A stretch of 64,000 nt of DNA from Curvularia clavata (Eukaryota). The notes below the pieces were generated by a model. It had not been told where the DNA came from and made no database searches. It saw only the letters and a list, made by a program, of their open reading frames with translations. Positions within the stretch are counted from its first letter, which is position 1. Every line of letters begins with the position of its first letter. Location of the stretch: positions 4,960,001 to 5,024,000 of the forward strand of contig CP089275.1 of the NCBI GenBank assembly GCA_023920165.1, written 5' to 3'. Shown here piece by piece: positions 35,647 through 49,642 of this stretch. The position numbers and the translations under genes are program-made.

Positions 35647-37264
35647 ATGGAGAACTCCAGCTCTGTCGAAAAGGGCGCCTACGTCCAGGATTCAACAGTA
35701 TCTTCTCCCGGTTCGACGGCCGAAGTTACCTTTGACCCTGCTGCTGAACGAAAACTTCTGAGAAAACTCGATCTCAGGATCTTGCCTGTGCTATGGATTC
35801 TTTATCTGGTGAACTTCATCGACCGGTAAGAAGAATTGCATCGTCTTCCAAGTGGAGAGCTGACGGGGTTTACAGAGCAAACATCGGAAATGCCAAGATC
35901 GCGGGTATGGAGAAGGAGCTGAACCTTATCGGTCAGCGCTTCAATATCAGTGTATGGGTCTTTAATCTTGGATACCTTGTCGCAGGAGTCCCACTCCAGA
36001 TTGCGTTCAAGAAGTATGGACCAAAAACTTTGTGCATCATGATGCTCTGTTGGGGCGTCACAGTCATTGGATCTGGACTGGTGAAGCGATGGGAACAACT
36101 GGTTGTTTGCCGTCTGCTCACAGGTATCGCTGAAGCAGCCTTCATATCTGGTTCCGCCTATCTTATTGGCGCTTACTACTCGAAGCGCGAGTACCTCTCA
36201 CGATATGTTTACTTTCTTACTGCTGGTATCATTGCTGGTGCTATCAACGGGTTCCTCTCGTCACTTATTTCGAAAATGAGCGGCACAGCTGGCTACGCAG
36301 CGTGGAGATGGTGAGTTTTGCATCTCACATAGTTCAGAGCGCTAGTTGCTAACTTGGAAAAGGATTTTCATCATCGAAGGCTGCGTGACAATCTTCATTA
36401 GCATTGTTTGCTTCCCCTTTGTCCCACCGTTCCCGGAAAACTGCAACTTCCTGTCGCCCGAAGAAAAGGCACTCATGCTCGCACGTGTGAAGGCTGACGG
36501 AGGCCATGTTTCCGACGACGAAATTACACTCAAGAAGGCTCTCGAGTACCTGAAAGACTGGAAAATTTGGACCGGGTAGGTGGCTTGCTGTTCTTTCGGA
36601 TAGACGTCGATGCTAACAACGCGGCAGTGTCGCTATGAATCTTGGTGTCACTGAAAATGCCAACTCTCTCGCAAACTTCCAGCCGACTATCCTCAAAGGT
36701 CTCGGCTACACAGCTATACAGGCTCAGGTTCACACAATTCCTGTGTACCTTGTTGGTGCCGTCTTTTCCGTCATATTTGCGTACATGAGTGAGAGGCTGC
36801 ATCGCCGCTACCTCTTCTACATGTTTGGTTGGGCCGTTCTTGCAGCAGGTCTTATCGTTGAGATTGCGCACCCATCCAACCCCAAGGTACGATACATGGG
36901 CATGTTCTTTATCGCATGCGGCTGCTACCTTGCCATGCCAATTTCCATCATCTGGGTCTCCATGAACTGCGGAAGCGGATACAAGCGTGCTGTGGCGATT
37001 GCAGCAATCATCAATTTCGGTACTGCAGGTGCCTTCGTTAGCTCTAACGTCTTTCTCTTCAAAGAGGCTCCCAGGTTTCGTACTGGCTTCAGCACGGGCC
37101 TGGGTTTAGCCTGTATGGGAGCTGTCGCCGCGACCATTACATGGTACGGATGCAAGAAGGAAAACAAGAAACGGGACCAACGAAGGCTGGAGCTGCCCGA
37201 GGTTCTCGATCAAAGCATGAAAGAATTGGGCGACGATCACCCAGACTTCCGCTTTGCCCTCTAA
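35647..37264 (+). CDS. MFS transporter (ACS/allantoate-nicotinate family)
   Basis: ERKLLRKLDLRILP, DRANIGNAKIAG, WRWIFIIEG, AQVHTIPVY, HPDFRFAL; three canonical introns. Confidence 0.92.
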
Positions 37265-37762
37265 ATCTCTATGAAGATAGTCGCTACTCTGTACATAAAC
37301 TCTCCCGCTTGATGCGTTAATCCAATATAGACCTGATAGATCGCAATAACAGCCTTTCACACTCACAGCTCATTGTCACGATCAACCCTTTAGGACAAGG
37401 AATCAAAAGGGAACTTTTGAATATGCCGCAGTTTCTTGGCACACCCCTGGAAACTAACGGACTCTTTTCGCCCAGTACGCCGTCGAAACTCTCAGCAAAC
37501 TGCTCATTAAAGGGGCTCATACATGGGCACAGTTTCATATAGAGGTGCATTATCTTTGTGACAATATCACACTCATGAAGCCTGTTGACACTGGACATTA
37601 AAGAGAACGGAGGTCAACGACGGAAAAGGAAGGACGCAACAGATATGTTATAATGAACAAAAACCTTGATAAGCATCCACGATGCATTGACAACGCCAAT
37701 GTCAGTATTATGATAACACAAGATGATTGTACGCACTGCCGAGTACACACCATAATCTGCCT

Positions 37763-39413
37763 TCAGTCGTGTTTGGTGTAGACCTTGACATACTTGACGT
37801 GCTCATTACCTTGCGCGTCCTCATACCGCTTGCTGACGATCTTATAGCCTCCTATTTTCGGCCACACCTTCGTCCAACAAGCCCAGTAAAACACGCCTAG
37901 GAGTAGAACAGAGACACCTACAACAGGGAAGACGTAGAACGGGTAGCCTTCTGCGTTCCAATCGCCGTCTGGTGGAATGAAAGGGACAAGTGCTAGGAAG
38001 ATATTGGCAGCCAGGTACAATAGAGCGACAGGAAGATAGGTATGCCACGGGGACTCCCAGCGCTCCTTTTTCGAGTAATGGAGATAGATGAGACCCGCGG
38101 TGACGAAGCCGTTGATCCATGCGCCTGGATAGGTGTAAAGGTCGGTGATGAAATTGTAGGCGGGTCCAGCGGGTGGTGCGAGCAGGACAACTACAGTGAT
38201 GAGCCAATGTAAAAACAGAGCAGTTGCAGGAGCATTGAATGGTTTGTTTGATGCCCAAAATCGGCTCCAAGGTAGCAAGCCTTCTTTCGCAAACTCTTGG
38301 TTCAGCCGAGCATGCGCAAAGCTGACCGCGAGAACATTGCCCAGATTGCTAAGTGCGACGAATGCCGGAAGACTACGTGCTCCAGCACTGTTACCGAAGA
38401 CGTTACGGAAGAACAGACCGGCAACGATGACTTCGCTCTTCGCAAGATCAGATTTCGGGATTGCGGCGAAGTAGGCAACGTTTGCGAGTACGTATAAAAT
38501 AGTCGTTCCACCAACAGCGAGCGGCGCGGACCAACTGAGCGTCTTCTTCGGGTTCTTGATTTCTCCCAGGACGTAGTTGGCATTCTCCCACCCCTTGTAT
38601 GAGTATATGATACGAAGAAGAGCTTGACAGTATTCGTATGCACCTCCTCCACCGTAACCATCACCGACTTCGAGACGGAATGCGTTGTCGAAATTATGCG
38701 GCTGTTCAATTTTCAGATGACCGGCAAGCGCAGCGAAGCCAGAGAAAACGATAAATAAGAGAATAAAGACTTTGAATATTCCCAGGACGTTGAAAAGGCG
38801 AATACCCCACTTCGGCAGGGTAGCATGAAGAGTGACAGCGAACGTTACGCATGCAACAGCAATGCCACGCGCTGCCCAGCCATCGGGTGATTCCGATCCA
38901 GATGCGAAAAGGACATAACGACCAAAGGCCAGGGAGTTACCGGAGGAAAAGCCTAGGAAAAGCATCTGTGCGGCTAACACACACGTTGCCATATACTTCG
39001 GATGACGATAGACACGCTCTAGGTAGTTCTTTTCGCCACCGGACCGGGGAATTGCAAGGCCAAACTCGAGAAAGACGGAAAGTCCGCAAAACGTAAGGAC
39101 ACCGCCGATGATCCAGAGGAAAAGTGATACTCCAACCGATCCCGTCACAGCGAAGATACCAGAAGGCGTAGAGAAGACGGTTGAACGTTAGTAACGGCGT
39201 GGTGCTATGTAGCTAACTATACTTACTGCCAGTCCCAATCATCTTGTTCAGAATCACAAAGACAGTCGCGGTGTATCCCAGCTTTTGGGAATCGTCATAA
39301 ACATAGGCATTGTCCTCCTGAACGCTGCCCTCATCCTGAGTTGGCGGGGATGGCGGCGCCTCATCAGTGGTGTACTGCACTATCTTCGCCCTGTCGTCGA
39401 TTTCGCTCGCCAT
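37763..39413 (-). CDS. High-affinity methionine permease (MUP1-like, APC); first intron has a non-canonical acceptor
   Basis: NKMIGTG|IFSTPSGIF, EFGLAIPRSGGEKNYL, YSYKGWENANY, QEFAKEG. Intron 39178-39226 reads GTAAGT...TACTAAC...CCG. Confidence 0.85.
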
Positions 39414-41737
39414 GCTGGTGGTTAATCTGAAGCTACTGTTGCTGCTGGGGCAGGCTGTAAGTTAAATGTAACGTTGCATAGCAGTATGCAGTGACGCGAT
39501 AGCATAGTCTCAGCATGCCACGCGAGATAAATTGCACTTTTTTCTTCCTTATGTCGCAATCGACACAGAGTGTAAGATTCCAAGGCCTGAGATGCTCACG
39601 GTGCCAGACGATGGCTCGTCCCAAGACACTATAACGGGAAGGTGAACCATTTTGATGGGATCGAAGCTCTTGGTATAGCTTCTCGGCCATACGCATCATC
39701 GCCCAGGGTAATGTCGTGATCCTGGGCACCATTAGCTTGCCGCGCATATCCTTGGCACCCACGATCTGCATTTAGGCACTTGTTATCATGATAGCGATTG
39801 CCTCGCAGGCTATAAGTCGAAGAATGTCCATAGTCGGAGACGGTAATGTGGTTGATTGCGGTCAGCTTTGGCGGCAGCGCTAACGGTGCGAGGTATGAAA
39901 ACCGATGGTATGCGACGGATCCTGGCCAAGGTGTTCGAAAAGGCAATGGATGGAGGATTCTGTTGGGGAGTGTCATTGCCTATGGCATCCGCGACGGTGT
40001 TGTAGCAACGAAGTAGTTTTATTTTTGATGACAACGGAATAGCGCGCCCTCCCCGAAGTGCCGACTAAGACAGGCTTTGCGCTTCCCTTGTTCGACCGGC
40101 GAAATTAGATACGCCGCACGACAATACTGCCACTTCACGTTGTAGAGGTCACGGCTTGACCCGTACGTATTTCGAAGCTGACCAAAAGAAAAGGTTCATT
40201 CATGCCTAACAAGAATCCCTGTGTTAGCTGGTGTGAGTGCGAACCAATCAAATTGCATCGACTTCAGTCGATTCGCGCACGGCGAGTATCGGGCTGGCAG
40301 TTGTGTGATCGCTCACATCTAGCAGGTGTTGTGGCGGTAGCTTAGTCACATTCGACTAGCATTACATGAGTCTGAGAGGCGTTCTCATTGGAAGTAGTGT
40401 TAAACAAGTTGTACTGGTGTGTGTTTTTGAAGGAGTGGTGCCACGACGCTCGGATCTCGAGATTCTCTCAGCCATCCAACGGTAAGCAACGTCACGTGGT
40501 ATGTGCTAGACAGGTCTGACAAAATTGTCGGGTATGTACAGAGGCAATTGCAGTATTTCACTCATATCTCTTAGATGCTAAATAGTAGTTGACCCACGTC
40601 TGATAGGCATCGTACACCTAGCGACGGTCAAACATGCATCCCGACTACGTGAAATGGGAACTGTTGAACGCCACCGACAGCCATCATATTCACTTGAACC
40701 ACACCTCATAGCTGCTGGATGCGTGAAAGTGCCACAGGTGGCGATTTTTAACAACCAAAGTGTTGATCAAAAGGCGACTACGTCTTTCTTCCCATGTCTC
40801 GCAAACTCCTCTCTGCCAGTGCTAGCTGCGAATCATCGTATGACATGGCCAACGGGCCCAGATTCGCAATGGCTGTTGTCTTCTATTACCCTATTTGAGT
40901 GATTCAATGGATGTTTCGCCGATCTGATGGTAGTCGGCGCTCTCGCTCAACACTAGGGGGTGTCCCTTTCTAGACCCACCGTCGCGCACGCTTCTACTTT
41001 TGTCAAGGCGTCGCAAAACCGATTGCTTACAGGACCGAATGTGGCTGGTTACCCTGTGAACAGTGCACTGGTTTATGGCGTGACAGACTTAAAACAGTGG
41101 CTGGCCTTCTAGGAAAATAACTCATTCAAGGGCAAATCTCGGAAGCTGTATTATAGTACAAAATCGAAGTGCTGGCAATATAAGACATGGGATGTAACCC
41201 ATTACCCATTGCCGATGTTTCGCCTACTGCTAGCTTATGCACGTAGTCCAGACGCGTTGTGACATGATCAAGCATAAGTACCATACAAGCGGGAACAAAC
41301 CACCGAAGTGTCGCGCGGTGAGCACGTCGTCCTCAACGTCCGATGGCAATAGTGGTATCTCTTGTACCTCGGATACCGGCTGTTCATTGAAGCATAAACC
41401 ATTTTCCTGTTCCCCTTAGGGCGCCGGCTGATTGGTGCATTATCTTTCCCCATCTACCCCATGTTTCCATCGTTTCCCCGTACAGGCCACCCCCGCGTTT
41501 TGTGGTACTCGCATCAGGTGTAATTGGAGGCATTAGACAGTAATCTGCTAACACAAGTAAATGCGGCTGAGTGTCACCAAAATTCCGGAGATATGATCAT
41601 CGTGCGCAACATGCTAGAGTCTACAATTAGCCGCAACTGTACCGGGGCAAATTAGTTTATAAGGAGGGTACCAGCCAAGCTTTAAAGTCGCGAGACTGGC
41701 CGAACCAGAGTAAATTCTGTACCCCAGAATTACCAAT

Positions 41738-42889
41738 ATGCGCTTGGCTATTATATGCGCTAGCCTGCTGCAGGTGTGCGCAGCTATACCAACGGTCAAT
41801 CGGAAAGCATGTCAGCATCCTAGCAAACAGCCCCTGGACGGGTGTCCGAAGAACACGCTCCTTGTCGGACCAGGGCGTAACTTCTCTACCATCCAGTCTG
41901 CAGTCCTCAGCTTGCCCAATGATACAACACCCTACCACATCCTTGTCCTTCCCGGTAACTACACTGAACAAGTCAACGTCACTCGGCCAGGTCCAGTCTA
42001 CCTCTTTGGCCAAACAAAGTCGCCAAATGACCAAAGCAAGAACACTGTCAACGTCATCTGGCACAACGCCACTGGCGCCGGACTATCAACACTGGATAAT
42101 GCATATACATCGGTTCTCACAGTCGCGCCCACCTTCAACGCAAGTTTGACCGGTTCAGGACCAACTGGCTTCCCCGTTCCAGCAGACACACCCTTCGGAA
42201 ACACAGATTTCCGCGCTTACAACCTCAACTTCATCAATGACTACCGGCCCTATTCCGCCGGTCCTTCCTTGGCTGTTTCCGTTAGCTATGCAAATACAGG
42301 CTTCTACCACTGCGGCTTCTACTCCTACCAAGACACCGTATACATTGGCAAACTCGGCAACGCCTATTTCTACAAGAACGAGATCGCCGGTCAAACAGAT
42401 TTCTTCTACGGTTTCGGCACAGCATGGATCCAGTCCAGCCTGGTAACCCTGCGCAACTGCGGCGGCGGCATCACTGCATGGAAAGGCACAAACACGACTT
42501 TCGAAAACAAGTACGGGGTGTACATTCACGACTCGAATGTCAAGAAGGCCAATGCTTCGCTCGCAATTACAGGAAAGTGCGCGCTGGGAAGACCGTGGAA
42601 TGCGCTTCATCGATCCATCTTCGCCAAGTGCTCGCTCGATGATTCGATCCAGTCCAATGGATATATTGAGTGGAGTACCTCGGATCCGAGAGTGAACGTC
42701 AACACGACAATGGCGGAGTATAAGGACTTTGGGCCAGGATGGAATGAGACGGCAAGACGAGCCAGCAATGTCAGTATTGTCATGGATGCGAAGAAGTATG
42801 AGCCATATTCTACACCAGAGAAGGTGTTCCAGTATCCGTTTTCTGGCAAGTTTGGAAATACGGCTTGGATTGATAGATCTCCGGAGTGA
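41738..42889 (+). CDS. Secreted pectinesterase (CE8)
   Basis: Signal peptide; FSTIQSAV, GNYTEQV, SYQDT, GQTDFFYG, LGRPW, AEY. Confidence 0.92.
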   Translation: MRLAIICASLLQVCAAIPTVNRKACQHPSKQPLDGCPKNTLLVGPGRNFSTIQSAVLSLPNDTTPYHILVLPGNYTEQVNVTRPGPVYLFGQTKSPNDQSKNTVNVIWHNATGAGLSTLDNAYTSVLTVAPTFNASLTGSGPTGFPVPADTPFGNTDFRAYNLNFINDYRPYSAGPSLAVSVSYANTGFYHCGFYSYQDTVYIGKLGNAYFYKNEIAGQTDFFYGFGTAWIQSSLVTLRNCGGGITAWKGTNTTFENKYGVYIHDSNVKKANASLAITGKCALGRPWNALHRSIFAKCSLDDSIQSNGYIEWSTSDPRVNVNTTMAEYKDFGPGWNETARRASNVSIVMDAKKYEPYSTPEKVFQYPFSGKFGNTAWIDRSPE

Positions 42890-43096: not shown

Positions 43097-44868
43097 TCAA
43101 GCTTTCTCCAGCACATCCTTGGAATCCTTTCGGACAAGATCTCCGGGCACCGTCTTCCACTGCTGCTCCTCATCAAGCAGCGTCTCAGCCTTCTCCCACT
43201 CCTCCCTAATAATCGCAGCTTTCTTCTCATCCCTCGGCGTGATACTAGCAGGAAACGGCTTGGGCTGTGCAAGCACGCCTTCCGTAAAATCATCTCTCTC
43301 AGGAATGATTTCTTTACCATTATTGTCACGGGCAGGCGAAATATTGAAAGCCCACAAAAGACGAGCCATTGTCAGGAATAAGGACCTCTCGGCGATGTGC
43401 ATGCCTTGACAAATGCGGCGTCCGGCTCCAAAGCCAAAGTGATCGCGTTTAGAGGGGTCAGGGTTGTTTGCCGACTCTGCTGCGGATTGTTGGTCATCGA
43501 TGTAGCGGGTTGGGTCGAAGCGGCGGGGGTCTGGATGGCGTTTGGGGTCATTGTGAATAGTCCAGTTGTTTGGTAAGACGCCAGCGCCTTTTGGGATCTT
43601 GTACCCCATGTACTCGTCATCTTGGATCAGGGCATGAGGGGCTCCCGAGATAACCGTAGGCATACATCGAAGTGTTTCTTTGATGCAACCGTTGATATAC
43701 GGCAGATTTGGCCAGTCCTCAAGAGTGGGAAGCCGATTGCCGCACACGCGATCGAGCTCTTCCTGCGCGGCTTTCGCTACGTCCGGAAATAGGATCATGG
43801 ATTGAACGACTTTGGCATGTCAGTCAAAGCCCCAAGAGGGTGAATGAAATACTTACAACTAATGATCTCTGCAGCTGTGGTGTCAGCGCCAGCCTCGAGT
43901 ACCGAACCGCTAATGTATCCTGCGAGCTCGTCCGAGAAATTCTCTTCCTCCTGGGCGCGTGCTAGATCAACACAGAAACACGAACTTGCGGTGCCGTTTT
44001 TGATCTTCTTTTTCACATCTAGCCAATGACCGACATACAACTCGCTCGACTCCTTATGAAGATGTTTAGCATATCTTCGTTCTGGAAGAAAAGCATCAGG
44101 TAGCCATCGTAGAATGGGGTAGAGGTCAAGTAGTGCTGCAGTCGTCTTCCCATGCACTTGAGACATTTTCTCAACTCCCTGTAGTAACATTAGCAATTGC
44201 AGCATCAGTTTGTGAAGAAATTACCTCAAAGAGCTGTATTAGCTTGGGATCATCGATCCTAGTAGTGCGAAATCCGTATATCATTTGTGTTGTAAAGCTA
44301 CCGGTAAACCGCCGTACATGATCGGCGAAATGCTCTGGTGTTTCCAGTAGCCCAACGAGCAAAGCCTTGTTCTCGAGGTCTTGATATGGCACGTAGGATG
44401 TGGCAACCTTGACATTCAGATTAAAGTGTATAATTTTTCGAATCATGCGCCACGTATCGCCATAGGGCTAGGTATGTTAGCATTTAGGGCATATCTAGTA
44501 TTCGAACAATCAACTCATACCATCAATGCCATGCGAAGGCCACCACTTGCTACATTGGCAAGATAATGGTCCGGGCGCGACGAGTAGATTCCGCTGCGCT
44601 TATCAAGAAGGTCCTTCACGGCCTGATCCGACCCAAGTACAACCATGACCATGGTACCAAGCATGAGTGAGTAGACCGGGCCATATTCATCAGCCCATTT
44701 CTTGAACTGGAGGTGAGTTTTTTCCTTGGGCATAAGATGAAGGTTACCGATAAGTGGTAATGTTGGAGGGCCTGGCGGATATCCTTTCGGCCTTTGACCG
44801 ATCCTGCTTAGCCGATATATGGCTATACTGAATAGTGTCGCGAACAGCGTGTAAGTTAGGATAGACAT
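43097..44868 (-). CDS. Cytochrome P450 monooxygenase
   Basis: N-terminal TM plus PPGP, AGADTT, ETLR, FDPTRY, FGAGRRICQG. Three canonical introns give an intact frame. Confidence 0.93.
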
Positions 44869-46342
44869 TGCGTTAGATGAAGACCCTGGGTTGCAAAATC
44901 ACGGTTTATATCATCGTTTCACAGCACCACCTACTATCAGTAAGCGGGGTACAAGATATGAGCAAGTCGATCTTGTCATCTAAAGCCGATGAATTTGCTG
45001 GAGCTGAGCCTGGGATGTAAGCCTTGGGTCACAGGGATGTACTCGTTCAGCCTAGCTTGGCTCACCCAAAGTGGCGCCAATGCACTTAATAATCAGAAAG
45101 CGTTACACACAATCTTGGCATGATGTGTGAAAATCATGACCCATATGCTCATTGGACTCTTTCCGAGAGCTGAGATAACAATGCGACATGAGCGGAGTTA
45201 CATTTGCGCGGCTGCAGCGGTTTTGGGCCGCCAGTGCCAATGCTCATCCATGCAGCAAGATGAGGACATGGACAATCAGCTCAAAACGAAACGGAACAGC
45301 GAAAGATACCAATAATCCTGTGGTGAGCAGTGCATACTGAGCTTTAGGAGTGTTTCGGCAGGCGGTATACAAAAAAGAAGCCGAAAGCTGCATGTGTGGC
45401 CATATTCTAGGTGAGCATGCGTTCGAATAGTCGTCGCGAACTTTTTGCATGCTATGACGGTGAACAGAGCTACTAGTAGCCCTGGGATAAGCTGTAGTCT
45501 CTCCTTCCGGACTCTCTATAAATTGAAGACCGAAGAGAAATCCTAGAGGGCAGCTATTAGGCATACAACAGTTTCTGATTGTATATGTAGGTGGCAGCAG
45601 TCTCCACTCATTAACTCCCACCACTACTCCCTTATTCCTGAGCAAGCTTGGATTTCGGATCAGGTATTAAGTAGGTATCGTGGTCCGACACACTATACTC
45701 CCATTCAATGTCAGTGTTGAAGAGAAGTCTCACCCGATCTTCACCTTGTCATATAGTCTCACAAAAAATAAGACCAGGCAAGTCACACACAATAGGTATC
45801 TGACAAAAAAGAAATAAGCAACGTGAACTGAAGAATGGAGATTTCATCAAATGAATACGACTATTAGACATTAAACATGACGGATAGTTAGTAACAATAT
45901 ATGTAAGAGTAACAAACACTTTTCACATTACTAGTAAAGGAGAATAGAGCCCTTGAAGTAAAATAACTCCTTTGCAGTGCTCTTTTTAAGAATTTGACGT
46001 CTCCACCGTGCCAACTTTTCACGTCTTTCCCATCACATCGCCCCTTTCCGTTCAACCCGTCCGAGGCAGAGAGGAAGAAAAACGAAACGAAGGGTTCAAA
46101 AAGTAAGCAATATGCAAAACAGGAAAAGCAAACCCGTCAAGCAGGTATCAAGCTCCGACACCCCTGCCTCACGTTATCGGAAAAAGCAACTTAACACATC
46201 AAACGGTCGTGCATTGACGAGCGGGGGAAGCCCTGTCTTGTGAGGGACCAAAAGAAAAGAGAACAACAAAGCAAGGCATGATGCAGAAATGGAAATGCCA
46301 TGCTGATTATGAATAAATAGGATATCAAAGTGGGGGGAATAA

Positions 46343-47797
46343 TTACAACACCATAAGACCCAAAACAGCAATGACAATGGCGCAAACCGAGCCGCTCATG
46401 TGCGAAAGGCCAGGCTGAACCGTTGTCGCAGCACCGGTAGAACCGGAGCTACTTCCACCCTGGACAAAGCCAGACGAGCTTCCACCGCTACCTCCTGCTG
46501 CCTCGGTAGACTGTGGGTTGGAAGCCTGTCCGTCTGAGCTGCCTGAGCCGCTGGAGCCACCGGCGGCCTGGCCACCGGGGATGACGACACCAGGGACCGA
46601 CATGACGGTTCCGGTAGGCTTAGGCTTGCTGTTGTCGTTAGCCTCGCCTGGTTCCTCGCCGGTACCCATGAGCGAGCCAAGGACAACAACATCATCGGTA
46701 ATAGCCACCGTGTTGTTAGTTCCGGCCTCATCCGTGTACTTGTACGTCTTCTTTCCCTTGATCTGCGCTCCTTGTGGGGGGTCGTAGCACTCAACAGTGA
46801 CTTCGGAGAAACGGGCTGCGTAGTATCCGTTGACCATGTATGGGCTGTTCCAGTCGATCAGACCGCCTGCCCAGTCAATGGTACCCTGTGCGTTGGTGTC
46901 CTTGCCGGCGGGCCACAGAGACAGCATGACGCGAGATGGGGTTTGCGGGTAGTCGAATCGGCCCGAGGTGCTATTCCAGGTTCCTGATCGTTCGAGTTTG
47001 CGCATTTCCTTGCCGTCAACAGACCAGGTGAGGGAATCTTCTTGCCAGTCGACGCAGTACTCGTGCTCAGTCTCGACTGAGTTGCCGTTGGGGATGGTGA
47101 GGTTCTTGCCGTTTGTGTCTAGTTTTCGTATTAGTATCCATTCTCAAACGGGACAAGAGAGCAGGCAAACTCACAGACTGTCACGCCCTGGGAATAGAAA
47201 TTTGATTGGACGTCGTTGACATCCATACCAACCCACTCAAAATCAATTTCGTCCTTGACGTCCGACATGAGAATGAAAGCGGTGACAACGCCCTTGCCCT
47301 GAGCAGTGCTGAGCTTGGAGCAAATCTTGCCATACCAAACATAGAAGGTCGATGCCAACAGTGTTCCATCTGTTCCTTGGGCCATGGTCAAGAGAGTCGA
47401 CTTCTTGCCTGACTTGGGGTCTGTGTATATGGTGGGGTCGCCTTGCGACTGCCAGTTGATCTTGGAGGCATCACCAAGGTACTTGTCGATGGACAGAACG
47501 TCGTCGAGGTTATCGAGCGAGTAGGTTCCGGATTTGCATACGGGAGCGGGAACGCAAGAGTCAAGAGAGTTTGACATGGTAGGGTCGCATCCACCCAGGC
47601 AGAAAGCGCCGACACCGCAGTCGCCATACACTGCATGGTGGTTAGCACGCAGTTGTGAAATGAAGATTGGCGCAATACGCACGCGAGCAGCAGGGCGTCT
47701 CTTTGGGGCAGTGGCTGTTCTTTGTGCACTTTGCACTGTGGGCGACGCCAGCAAATGCGGCGGCCGCAATCGCGGCGGAAAGCACACCACGAACCAT
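46343..47797 (-). CDS. GH16 chitin transglycosylase Crh2/Utr2-like (CBM18, GPI signal)
   Basis: Signal peptide; CPKETPCCSLYGDCGVGAFCLGGCDP; catalytic DEIDFEW; YPQTPSR; Ser/Gly-rich stalk; hydrophobic C-terminus; two introns. Confidence 0.92.
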
Positions 47798-49642
47798 GGC
47801 TCGGACCGTTTTCGCAGTCGGTGATGTCGTGATGATAAGCTGATGTGGAGTTGAGTCGGACCGCGATCAGATTCCTATCGCAGGACTGGTGGGAGGCACT
47901 TTCTCAGAGTTTGTTGAGTGATGTCAATCGTAAGCACGATGGTGATCCGCGTAGGGGTTCGTCTTGGGAGAAGGCTAGTAAAGCAATATGGCCGTTTATT
48001 ACACCCCTGGCTATCCTCAGGCCCAGTTTCGAGTAGCGAGCGTTGGTAAAAGGAAACGAAAAGCAAGCACAACGGCGGGTTAGTATAGCGAGAGTGGTCC
48101 CTGAGGGAGTGAGGAGGAGAGAGCAGGCCTGGACGGGCGGCCAGCTTCCTCTTGAAGAAGGGGTTTCTGGGGTACGAGGTGGCGCATCAATATGGAATTG
48201 CGCCATTCTGGTTCTGGCCATTGACTAGCCGCTTGCATCGGCTAATGAACCATTAGCGACCCGGCCGTCCACACCATCAGTCCGTCATGGCCCGCGGCGT
48301 GTTTCGTCGACGGCACGCCCTGCTGCCTGACTTGCTGGCGACATGGAACGCCTGCCTGGCGCAGAGTTGTGTAGGCAGACAGCCTCGCCGTGTTTGTGCT
48401 GCCGTGTCAGTGCTGCCCTGCATTTGCATTGACTCGATTCCTTGTAGGCGTAGCGCCCTCATTATCGACACGCCCTATTTCTGGAACGCCCTGCAGGAAG
48501 ACCCTCGTCGCCCCACCGTCTGCCCGCTGCCTCCCTGGTACATCCCCCGTCATACTTGAATTTTCGATTTTTTTCCCCAGGACGACGTCACCTTGGGTCA
48601 TACCATGTACAAGATACAGTTATCGTGTAACCTGTGCTGCCTTCTGCGGGGTTTGTGGTTGTGTACCCCCTGGCATGACTCGGATTCCAGCCGAGCACGT
48701 GTGCAACTGAGCACGTGTCTTGTCGCCTCGCATGACCAGCAAACCTTGCATCCCATAGCGCTCCCATTCAGGCCATCCAAACTGCATTGGGCCGGTACTC
48801 GGTGTCATATTTGCATGTCACACGTTGTCCTTTTGCTTTTGGCGATCCTGAAACGGACTGATATCGAGTTCAAACGGTATACATGATACAAACAACAAAC
48901 GTGAAAGGGGTTGAGCAGCATGGCTCGCTCTGGTCATTAAGTTGGATTGGAACACCAACTGAGGCCAAATATGCTCCAGCCTATTAGCGCTCGTAATCTA
49001 CGCAACCACAACAAGAACTGCAGCGCCAATAATGTCTCAAGTTGTGTGGCTTGCGAGGGAATCTGGACCTCGCATTTCGAGTTATCTACTTCCACAATAG
49101 GGCCGTGGAACGGTATGGCATGCATGGGACTACATAACCGAGGAGAAGGCAAATCCTCTTCATATGTGCTAGTCAGCCTCCAAGCGGCATTCCTCGTATT
49201 TGCAGAGATGTACAGATCTTGTCGATCTAAGTGACATTCAATATAGATGCCGCATGCTGGAAGTATCTACTACGGTCAAGGTCACGTGGCTGGTTCGTAT
49301 TCCCTCAGCCCTAGTGCTTCATGCACGTGACAACGTTCCTCAGTCGCCATTTGGATCATCCTCAGAGAACCCTTACCGTACACCAAATTCTAGCCCTTTG
49401 GTTGTCATTTTTGTATGCTTAAGGTCCTCATGTTATCATGCAGGGTTGAGGCACCGACATCGAACTCGGTGTACGTAGGTGGTTAAATCACTAAGCCTCG
49501 GCAGTTTACCTGCGCTTCCCTTACTTCTTCCCGAGCACTACCGCAAACCATAATTCAGTCAGAAGTTCTGCAACATTTCGGTCTTTCCAAACCATCGCTC
49601 TGGATGTCATACCTCCTCCACGGTAGCACATCTCACACGGGG

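Follow-up and report, generated by a model that had tools for sequence, protein, structure and literature searches.

A permease gene of Curvularia clavata whose intron ends in CG: a used 3' splice site or a strain's own acceptor allele

The window analysed here, a stretch of 64,000 nucleotides from Curvularia clavata, holds on its minus strand (37763-39413) a gene of two exons for a permease of the amino-acid/polyamine transporter (APC) superfamily. Its single intron begins with the donor GTAAGT and contains the branch-site match TACTAAC, but it ends in CCG, where the introns of relatives end in YAG. The question raised by this locus is whether the spliceosome of this fungus joins the exons at the CG end, whether the base at the penultimate intron position (-2) is instead a young change that damages the acceptor in the window's strain, or whether the letter itself is wrong.

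Gene structure and the place of the intron in the TM1 motif

The coding part of exon 1 (39227..39413, minus strand) opens with the ATG at 39413-39411 and comprises 62 codons and the first base of an isoleucine codon (phase 1); its last letters, ...ATT GGG ACT GGC A, end at 39227, and its last residues, NKMIGTG, match those of orthologs. The 49-nt, phase 1 intron (39178..39226) starts with the GTAAGT hexamer (39221..39226) and carries TACTAAC at 39187..39193, whose branch A (39188) lies 10 nt from the last base of the intron. Its 3' letters are AACCG, the last of them at 39178, and within the terminal CCG (39178..39180) position -2 is occupied by the deviating C at 39179. Exon 2 (37763..39177) opens at 39177 with the last two bases of the isoleucine codon, as TC TTC TCT ACG CCT TCT GGT ATC TTC, which after the isoleucine reads FSTPSGIF; it contains 470 codons and the stop at 37765-37763. 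Joining 39227 to 39177 yields a 533-aa protein that reads ...NKMIGTGIFSTPSGIFAVTG... across the junction, in agreement with its orthologs.

Exon 2 alone matches the Pfam family AA_permease_2 (PF13520) with 283.8 bits (cut-off 27, E = 3e-84), covering profile positions 17-424 of 427. Among named proteins, the closest carry the annotation 'high-affinity methionine permease', in Stemphylium lycopersici (94% identity) and Alternaria species (93-94%); these identities place the organism near both genera but in neither. That methionine is the substrate is no more than a label transferred from the annotation of these 93-94% identical proteins. The nearest solved structures are those of SLC7 transporters, the best being xCT (7ccs_B, E = 6e-40), with y+LAT, b0,+AT and LAT1/2 also found; they have the fold family and the TM1 motif in common with the permease, whereas these are animal proteins whose sequence likeness to it is distant only. 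The TM1 stretch IGAGIFVSPKGV of xCT aligns with IGTGIFSTPSGI of the ortholog P0003, and by way of this ortholog the IGAGIF of xCT is aligned to the G-x-G-I-F stretch in TM1 of the permease. Judged by this alignment, the intron interrupts the TM1 motif, and in the predicted product the G-x-G-I-F stretch is intact solely when 39227 joins 39177. The 533-aa product of this join contains NKMIGTGIFSTPSGIF, and the same sequence is found in 14 of the 16 orthologs that were fetched; these 14 are full-length (among them is a Setomelanomma protein whose model is aberrant at the intron point), and of the remaining two, one is a truncated ORF call and one reads through the intron.

Every other way of reading through this region damages the predicted protein. 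Upon retention of the intron the exon-1 frame reads GSKYS and then meets the TAG at 39215-39213 (ORF 39213..39461), and the exon-2 frame is blocked upstream by the TAA within TACTAAC (ORF 37763..39187). There is no AG in the sequence between the branch site and the GAG at 39130..39131, which is the first AG downstream of the branch site and lies 58 nt from the branch A; as an acceptor it is in frame, but its 517-aa product is short of 16 TM1 residues. When all GT/GC...AG pairs that leave an open frame were considered, 11 canonical alternatives were obtained with products of 463-520 aa, each of which loses at least 13 TM1 residues, and none of the 11 retains the TM1 motif. A preliminary description of the locus, made from the sequence, had listed the GTAAGT donor, TACTAAC at 39187-39193, the CCG end and the flanking exon letters, and had claimed that only splicing after CCG restores the TM1 motif, that retention runs into an in-frame TAG and that the next AG, at 39130, is in frame at the cost of 16 residues; the minus-strand sequence bears out all of this.

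Extended donor and branch consensus sequences characterize U12 introns. A U12-type intron was considered and rejected, as GTAAGT and TACTAAC are U2-type signals; the intron has these signals and ends in CG in place of the terminal AG of a GT-AG intron.

The same intron in relatives and the strength of its signals

A scan of metagenome contigs with exon 2 returned 43 loci, of which four do not extend to the gene's 5' part and a fifth (L024) is without exon 1, leaving 38 with both exon ends. The intron is present at the same phase-1 position in 24 of these 38 loci and absent from 14. The 24 loci represent 20 distinct introns of 42-87 nt, and every one of these ends in YAG (C or T before the AG), most frequently as ACAG, which is also the end of the partial intron in L024. 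When the intron is aligned with those of the eight closest loci, the G at -1 is invariant, the base at -3 is C or T, and the base at -2 is A in eight of eight, as compared to C in the window. A CG end was found in 0/20 distinct orthologous introns. Because all of them end in YAG, this comparison indicates that the CG end is derived, recent and lineage-specific, and one A>C change at -2 from an ACAG-like end would explain it. The preliminary description had proposed that a CG end conserved among orthologs would mark a genuine non-canonical site, and the relatives speak against such conservation. It had also suggested a splicing throttle on methionine uptake, an idea that finds no support here; as no relative has the CG end, a throttle would not be a conserved design.

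One relative records the splicing of this intron at a canonical end. The flanks of locus L001 are identical to those of the intron-bearing loci L019 and L020, and L001, one of the 14 loci lacking the intron, is without their 51-nt intron; it is the spliced (transcript-type) form of the L019/L020 gene, whose intron has a canonical ACAG end, and shows the same exon junction. Two other loci, L002 and L003, have near-identical introns that end in GTAG and GCAG, respectively, a natural Y/Y polymorphism at acceptor position -3. DNA loci were used for these comparisons instead of the read-through proteins P0005, P0006, P0123, P0125 and P0136, which fix positions -3 and -1 and not -2. A search with exon 1 and the 90% cluster of P0003 (40 of its 192 members read, 15 listed) returned, among the matches listed, Alternaria and Stemphylium models with the normal motif, and no model from the window's own organism. 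The same cluster also lists Alternaria proteins of 687-728 aa (P0132, P0134, P0135, P0142 and P0144) that are unlike the permease, which looks like an oddity of the listing or of the clustering. Around this intron, errors are frequent in public models and ORF calls (P0143, P0063, P0006, P0005 and P0123); examples are a 500-aa Alternaria alternata protein without 33 residues, the aberrant Setomelanomma model and the metagenome read-throughs.

The signals at the 5' end and branch site of the permease intron stand out from those of its relatives. The GTAAGT hexamer is also found in 3/20 distinct orthologous introns, and the full TACTAAC, read by eye, in 0/20; the orthologous branch sequence is usually TGCTTAC or a similar variant, with TACTAAG in three loci. 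The distance of 10 nt from the branch A to the last intron base is the commonest spacing in the intron family (6/20). Across the window, GTAAGT followed downstream by TACTAAC occurs once, at the permease intron, as compared to 24 generic intron-like patterns. The donor and branch signals of the permease intron are unusually strong, which in this one case may reflect compensation for the CG end, a permissive background or chance.

The exon junction and what it says about the CG end

A run search listed 21 sequencing runs, among which the DNA runs X1 (the probable source of the window) and X2 contain all sampled words of the gene, both being possible sources. The exon junction itself appears in X4 and X8, two runs of two studies that carry the same organism label as X1 and whose RNA kind is a guess. 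One contig from each (2660 and 4233 letters at depths of 27 and 82, respectively) skips exactly 39178..39226, joining 39177 to 39227 without the 49 nt and without ambiguity, and the GAG at 39130..39131 is absent as a junction from both contigs. On the plus strand the skipped stretch has the ends CG..AC, or GT..CG in the orientation of the gene. Shifted intron boundaries were rejected, as no letters fit both sides of the skip, and a transcript of the opposite strand was rejected as well, as its intron ends would read CG...AC and be likewise non-canonical. The join of 39227 to 39177 is most probably an mRNA junction of the organism, recorded in contigs that are guessed to be RNA and that come from a strain other than the window's. 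The junction 39226/39178 of the preliminary description is upheld as to its exact position, but in another strain. Whether the CG end is spliced or is a private allele, the correct protein at this locus needs this junction.

The X4/X8 strain differs from the window by 19 listed single-letter differences that are identical in X4 and X8 (22 other letters were counted, or ~1%). As the two contigs are without the intron letters, they are silent on whether this strain has CCG or CAG. An intron-bearing contig is absent from X4 and X8; contigs drop rare variants, so this is no measure of splicing efficiency. A further run that is on record as RNA (X17) yielded 4 short contigs at depth 2-3.3, which cover parts of exon 2 only, none of them reaching 39066-39413; at 38702, 38708 and 38819 they have the window's letters and not those of X4/X8. 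Within the coding sequence the window and the X4/X8 strain are separated by 12 differences, 10 synonymous and 2 conservative (A228V and V89I). These counts indicate that the permease gene is under purifying selection, constrained in both strain lineages, and is not an old pseudogene. Given this constraint between the strains, the window's allele, if dead, would have died recently.

We assign a probability of roughly 0.5 to the reading in which the window's strain splices, wholly or in part, at CCG. The CG end itself would then take exon ligation, at least in part, supported by the perfect TACTAAC 10 nt upstream at the usual spacing of the family. In the second splicing step the terminal G of an intron contacts its first G, in line with PMC10711555. 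This terminal G is kept in the permease intron, at the site where the family's YAG always sits, and ligation there would face no YAG competitor, since the next AG is the GAG at a distance of 58 nt from the branch A, a poor acceptor. Use of the CG end would give the complete 533-aa permease, its TM1 motif IGTGIFSTPSGIF intact; splicing might be less efficient than with CAG. Several observations favour this reading: two runs from two studies show the exact junction; the CCG is real in DNA (the X1 contig and the X2 words, detailed below); only the 39227|39177 join retains the motif of all 14 full-length orthologs; the gene appears to be under purifying selection; and the donor and branch signals are unusually strong. 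The same reading is weakened by the strain difference between the DNA and the RNA, because of which the RNA strain may have CAG, and by the guessed RNA label of X4 and X8, as well as by the absence of CG from the relatives, the usual severity of -2 changes, the rarity of GT-non-AG introns and the little use made of non-YAG sites in wild-type yeast.

A more demanding version, that the organism has the CG end fixed and that splicing of this conserved, selected gene uses it constitutively, is put forward tentatively and falls somewhat below an even chance. The wild-type spliceosome would in that case pick the site by its 10-nt spacing and terminal G, without an A at -2, and the CG would have arisen from YAG in a lineage ~6% protein-diverged from Alternaria and Stemphylium.

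The strongest competing explanation, to which we give a substantial but somewhat less than even chance, is that a young A>C change at -2, private to the window's strain, blocks or nearly blocks exon ligation there, and that the RNA strain has CAG. Its outcome would be intron retention, with the TAG at 39215-39213 and a transcript that is probably degraded, or a join to the GAG at 39130 that loses 16 TM1 residues. Changes at acceptor position -2 usually abolish normal splicing, and they form a classic class of loss-of-function variants; like these, the permease intron departs from the normal by one base, within the invariant AG. The permease differs from such variants in its optimal remaining splicing signals and in having its exact junction present in contigs of the same-labelled organism whose RNA kind is a guess. 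That 20/20 distinct orthologous introns end in YAG makes the change recent, the sole junction evidence is from a strain with 19 listed differences, and a methionine permease is unlikely to be essential in a fungus that presumably makes its own methionine, all of which agrees with a private allele. Against it stands the strong constraint on the gene (10 synonymous versus 2 conservative differences), under which a dead allele would have to be young; by a rough estimate from those counts, its death would fall within about the last quarter of the strain's own branch. The perfect donor and branch site, found together once in the window, with TACTAAC in 0/20 orthologous introns, would moreover be a coincidence, and the allele is present in two DNA runs of two samples and two studies, though these are possibly of the same strain. 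As a rough estimate, constitutive GT-non-AG introns and young acceptor lesions in a constrained gene both occur at about one in ten thousand introns. The unusually strong signals make us lean to use of the CG end, whereas the fact that no relative has CG, together with the usual severity of -2 changes, favours a private allele; the permease intron either belongs to the rare GT-CG class or carries an ordinary splice-site allele, two of the three options in the preliminary description.

The other two explanations fare much worse. According to the first, which the preliminary description had kept among its options, the C at 39179 is an error of assembly, polishing or sequencing and the true base is A. 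The prior rarity of non-AG ends speaks for this, and nothing else does. A contig of X1 (45,875 letters, word depth 93), which was built by Logan from reads and separately from the window's assembly, shows 0 differences from the window over the 2201 bases of 37500-39700, including the CCG, and run X2 contains 1.00 of the sampled gene words. If X1 is the source of the window, its contig is not independent of a systematic read error, but such an error is itself unlikely for a plain substitution at depth 93. As the separately built contig is identical to the window at this depth, an error is very unlikely.

The second holds that X4 and X8 are DNA from a strain with a precise loss of the intron or with a processed copy, so that the skip is uninformative on splicing; their RNA label is only a guess, but this explanation is highly improbable, as their contigs are short (2660 and 4233 letters), both stop at the same upstream place, the longest of their 34,971 and 76,839 records (28 kb and 19 kb, respectively) are short beside the 376 kb of the DNA run X1, which is of similar total size, and a processed copy too would record the 39227|39177 junction. 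By contig and record lengths, X4 and X8 look like RNA.

The X4 and X8 contigs also bear on the surroundings of the gene. By record coordinates, and assuming colinearity with the window, they run past the ATG and both end at ~40134. The upstream stretch that they cover (39414..40134, minus strand, 721 nt, its end point taken from the contig record coordinates) contains 14 upstream ATGs and two frames of 112 and 115 codons, the end of one lying 20 nt ahead of the main ATG. The stretch could belong to a long leader with a regulatory role or to another transcript that overlaps the gene. On the other side, the X8 contig reaches back to ~35853 by record coordinates and spans the 3' ends of the permease and of a convergent gene, seen as three successive ORF pieces on the plus strand (35748-37264) that look like a membrane transporter with short introns. 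Further long ORFs lie nearby at 41714-42889 (+), 43097-44898 (-) and 46343-47874 (-); by eye, the nearby ORFs look like a secreted carbohydrate-active enzyme, a multi-exon cytochrome P450 and a glycoside-hydrolase-like wall protein.

Comparison with known non-AG introns and meaning

Minor non-canonical splice-site pairs have been surveyed in general by Frey and Pucker (PMC7072748), and two fungal data sets offer closer points of comparison. In the manually corrected 'golden annotation' of Ganoderma lingzhi, Table 1 gives 19 GT-CG junctions, a ratio of 0.0206% of the sites it counts (PMC11590231). The ends of the permease intron are the same GT...CG dinucleotides, a very rare class in that table. 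The Ganoderma set is transcriptome-wide and comes from one basidiomycete, whereas here we deal with a single intron of a conserved ascomycete gene that has AG in every relative, and with RNA and DNA from different strains. Fusarium graminearum is a filamentous ascomycete too, and among 2604 of its introns 0.31% had pairs other than GT-AG and GC-AG, a proportion that refers to genes chosen for wrong models or alternative splicing; seven genes with such introns were confirmed by Sanger sequencing and were not sequencing errors (PMC3577648). The passage of that study on these introns names real GT-GG and other odd pairs, GT-CG not being among those it names.

A mechanistic parallel comes from budding yeast. 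The account in PMC10711555 describes ligation at 3' sites that lack the consensus A or G, chiefly in the absence of Prp18; by the same account, yeast spliceosomes can ligate at non-YAG sites ending in G, which are little used in the wild type. In the 'BG' sites of S. cerevisiae lacking Prp18 the terminal G is kept and the -2 base is not A, as in the permease intron, and the CG site lies near the branch point, as the yeast sites do, at 10 nt by the counting of that study, which is also the shortest natural branch-to-3'-site spacing that it gives for budding yeast. The parallel has limits: the yeast BG sites, as described there, are alternative sites of low use unmasked by a mutant spliceosome, whereas the permease CG would be the main site in a wild fungus, and the poly(U) tract reported as an enhancer in yeast (PMC10711555) does not precede the permease CG.

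Introns with non-AG ends are rare, are usually dismissed as errors and are a source of wrong gene models; at this locus, the 517-aa form and shorter ones are all that standard gene finders would offer. As a private allele, the CG end would mean that a single strain has lost one of its amino-acid permeases or has it in weakened form, an ordinary event of interest mainly for annotation. If instead the CG end is spliced, the permease intron would be a clear-cut example from nature of exons ligated although the otherwise near-invariant A at -2 is missing, in a conserved gene with an ancestral YAG in many relatives and with no competing site; and if it is constitutive, the intron and its YAG-ending relatives would form a natural before-and-after pair for AG-independent exon ligation.
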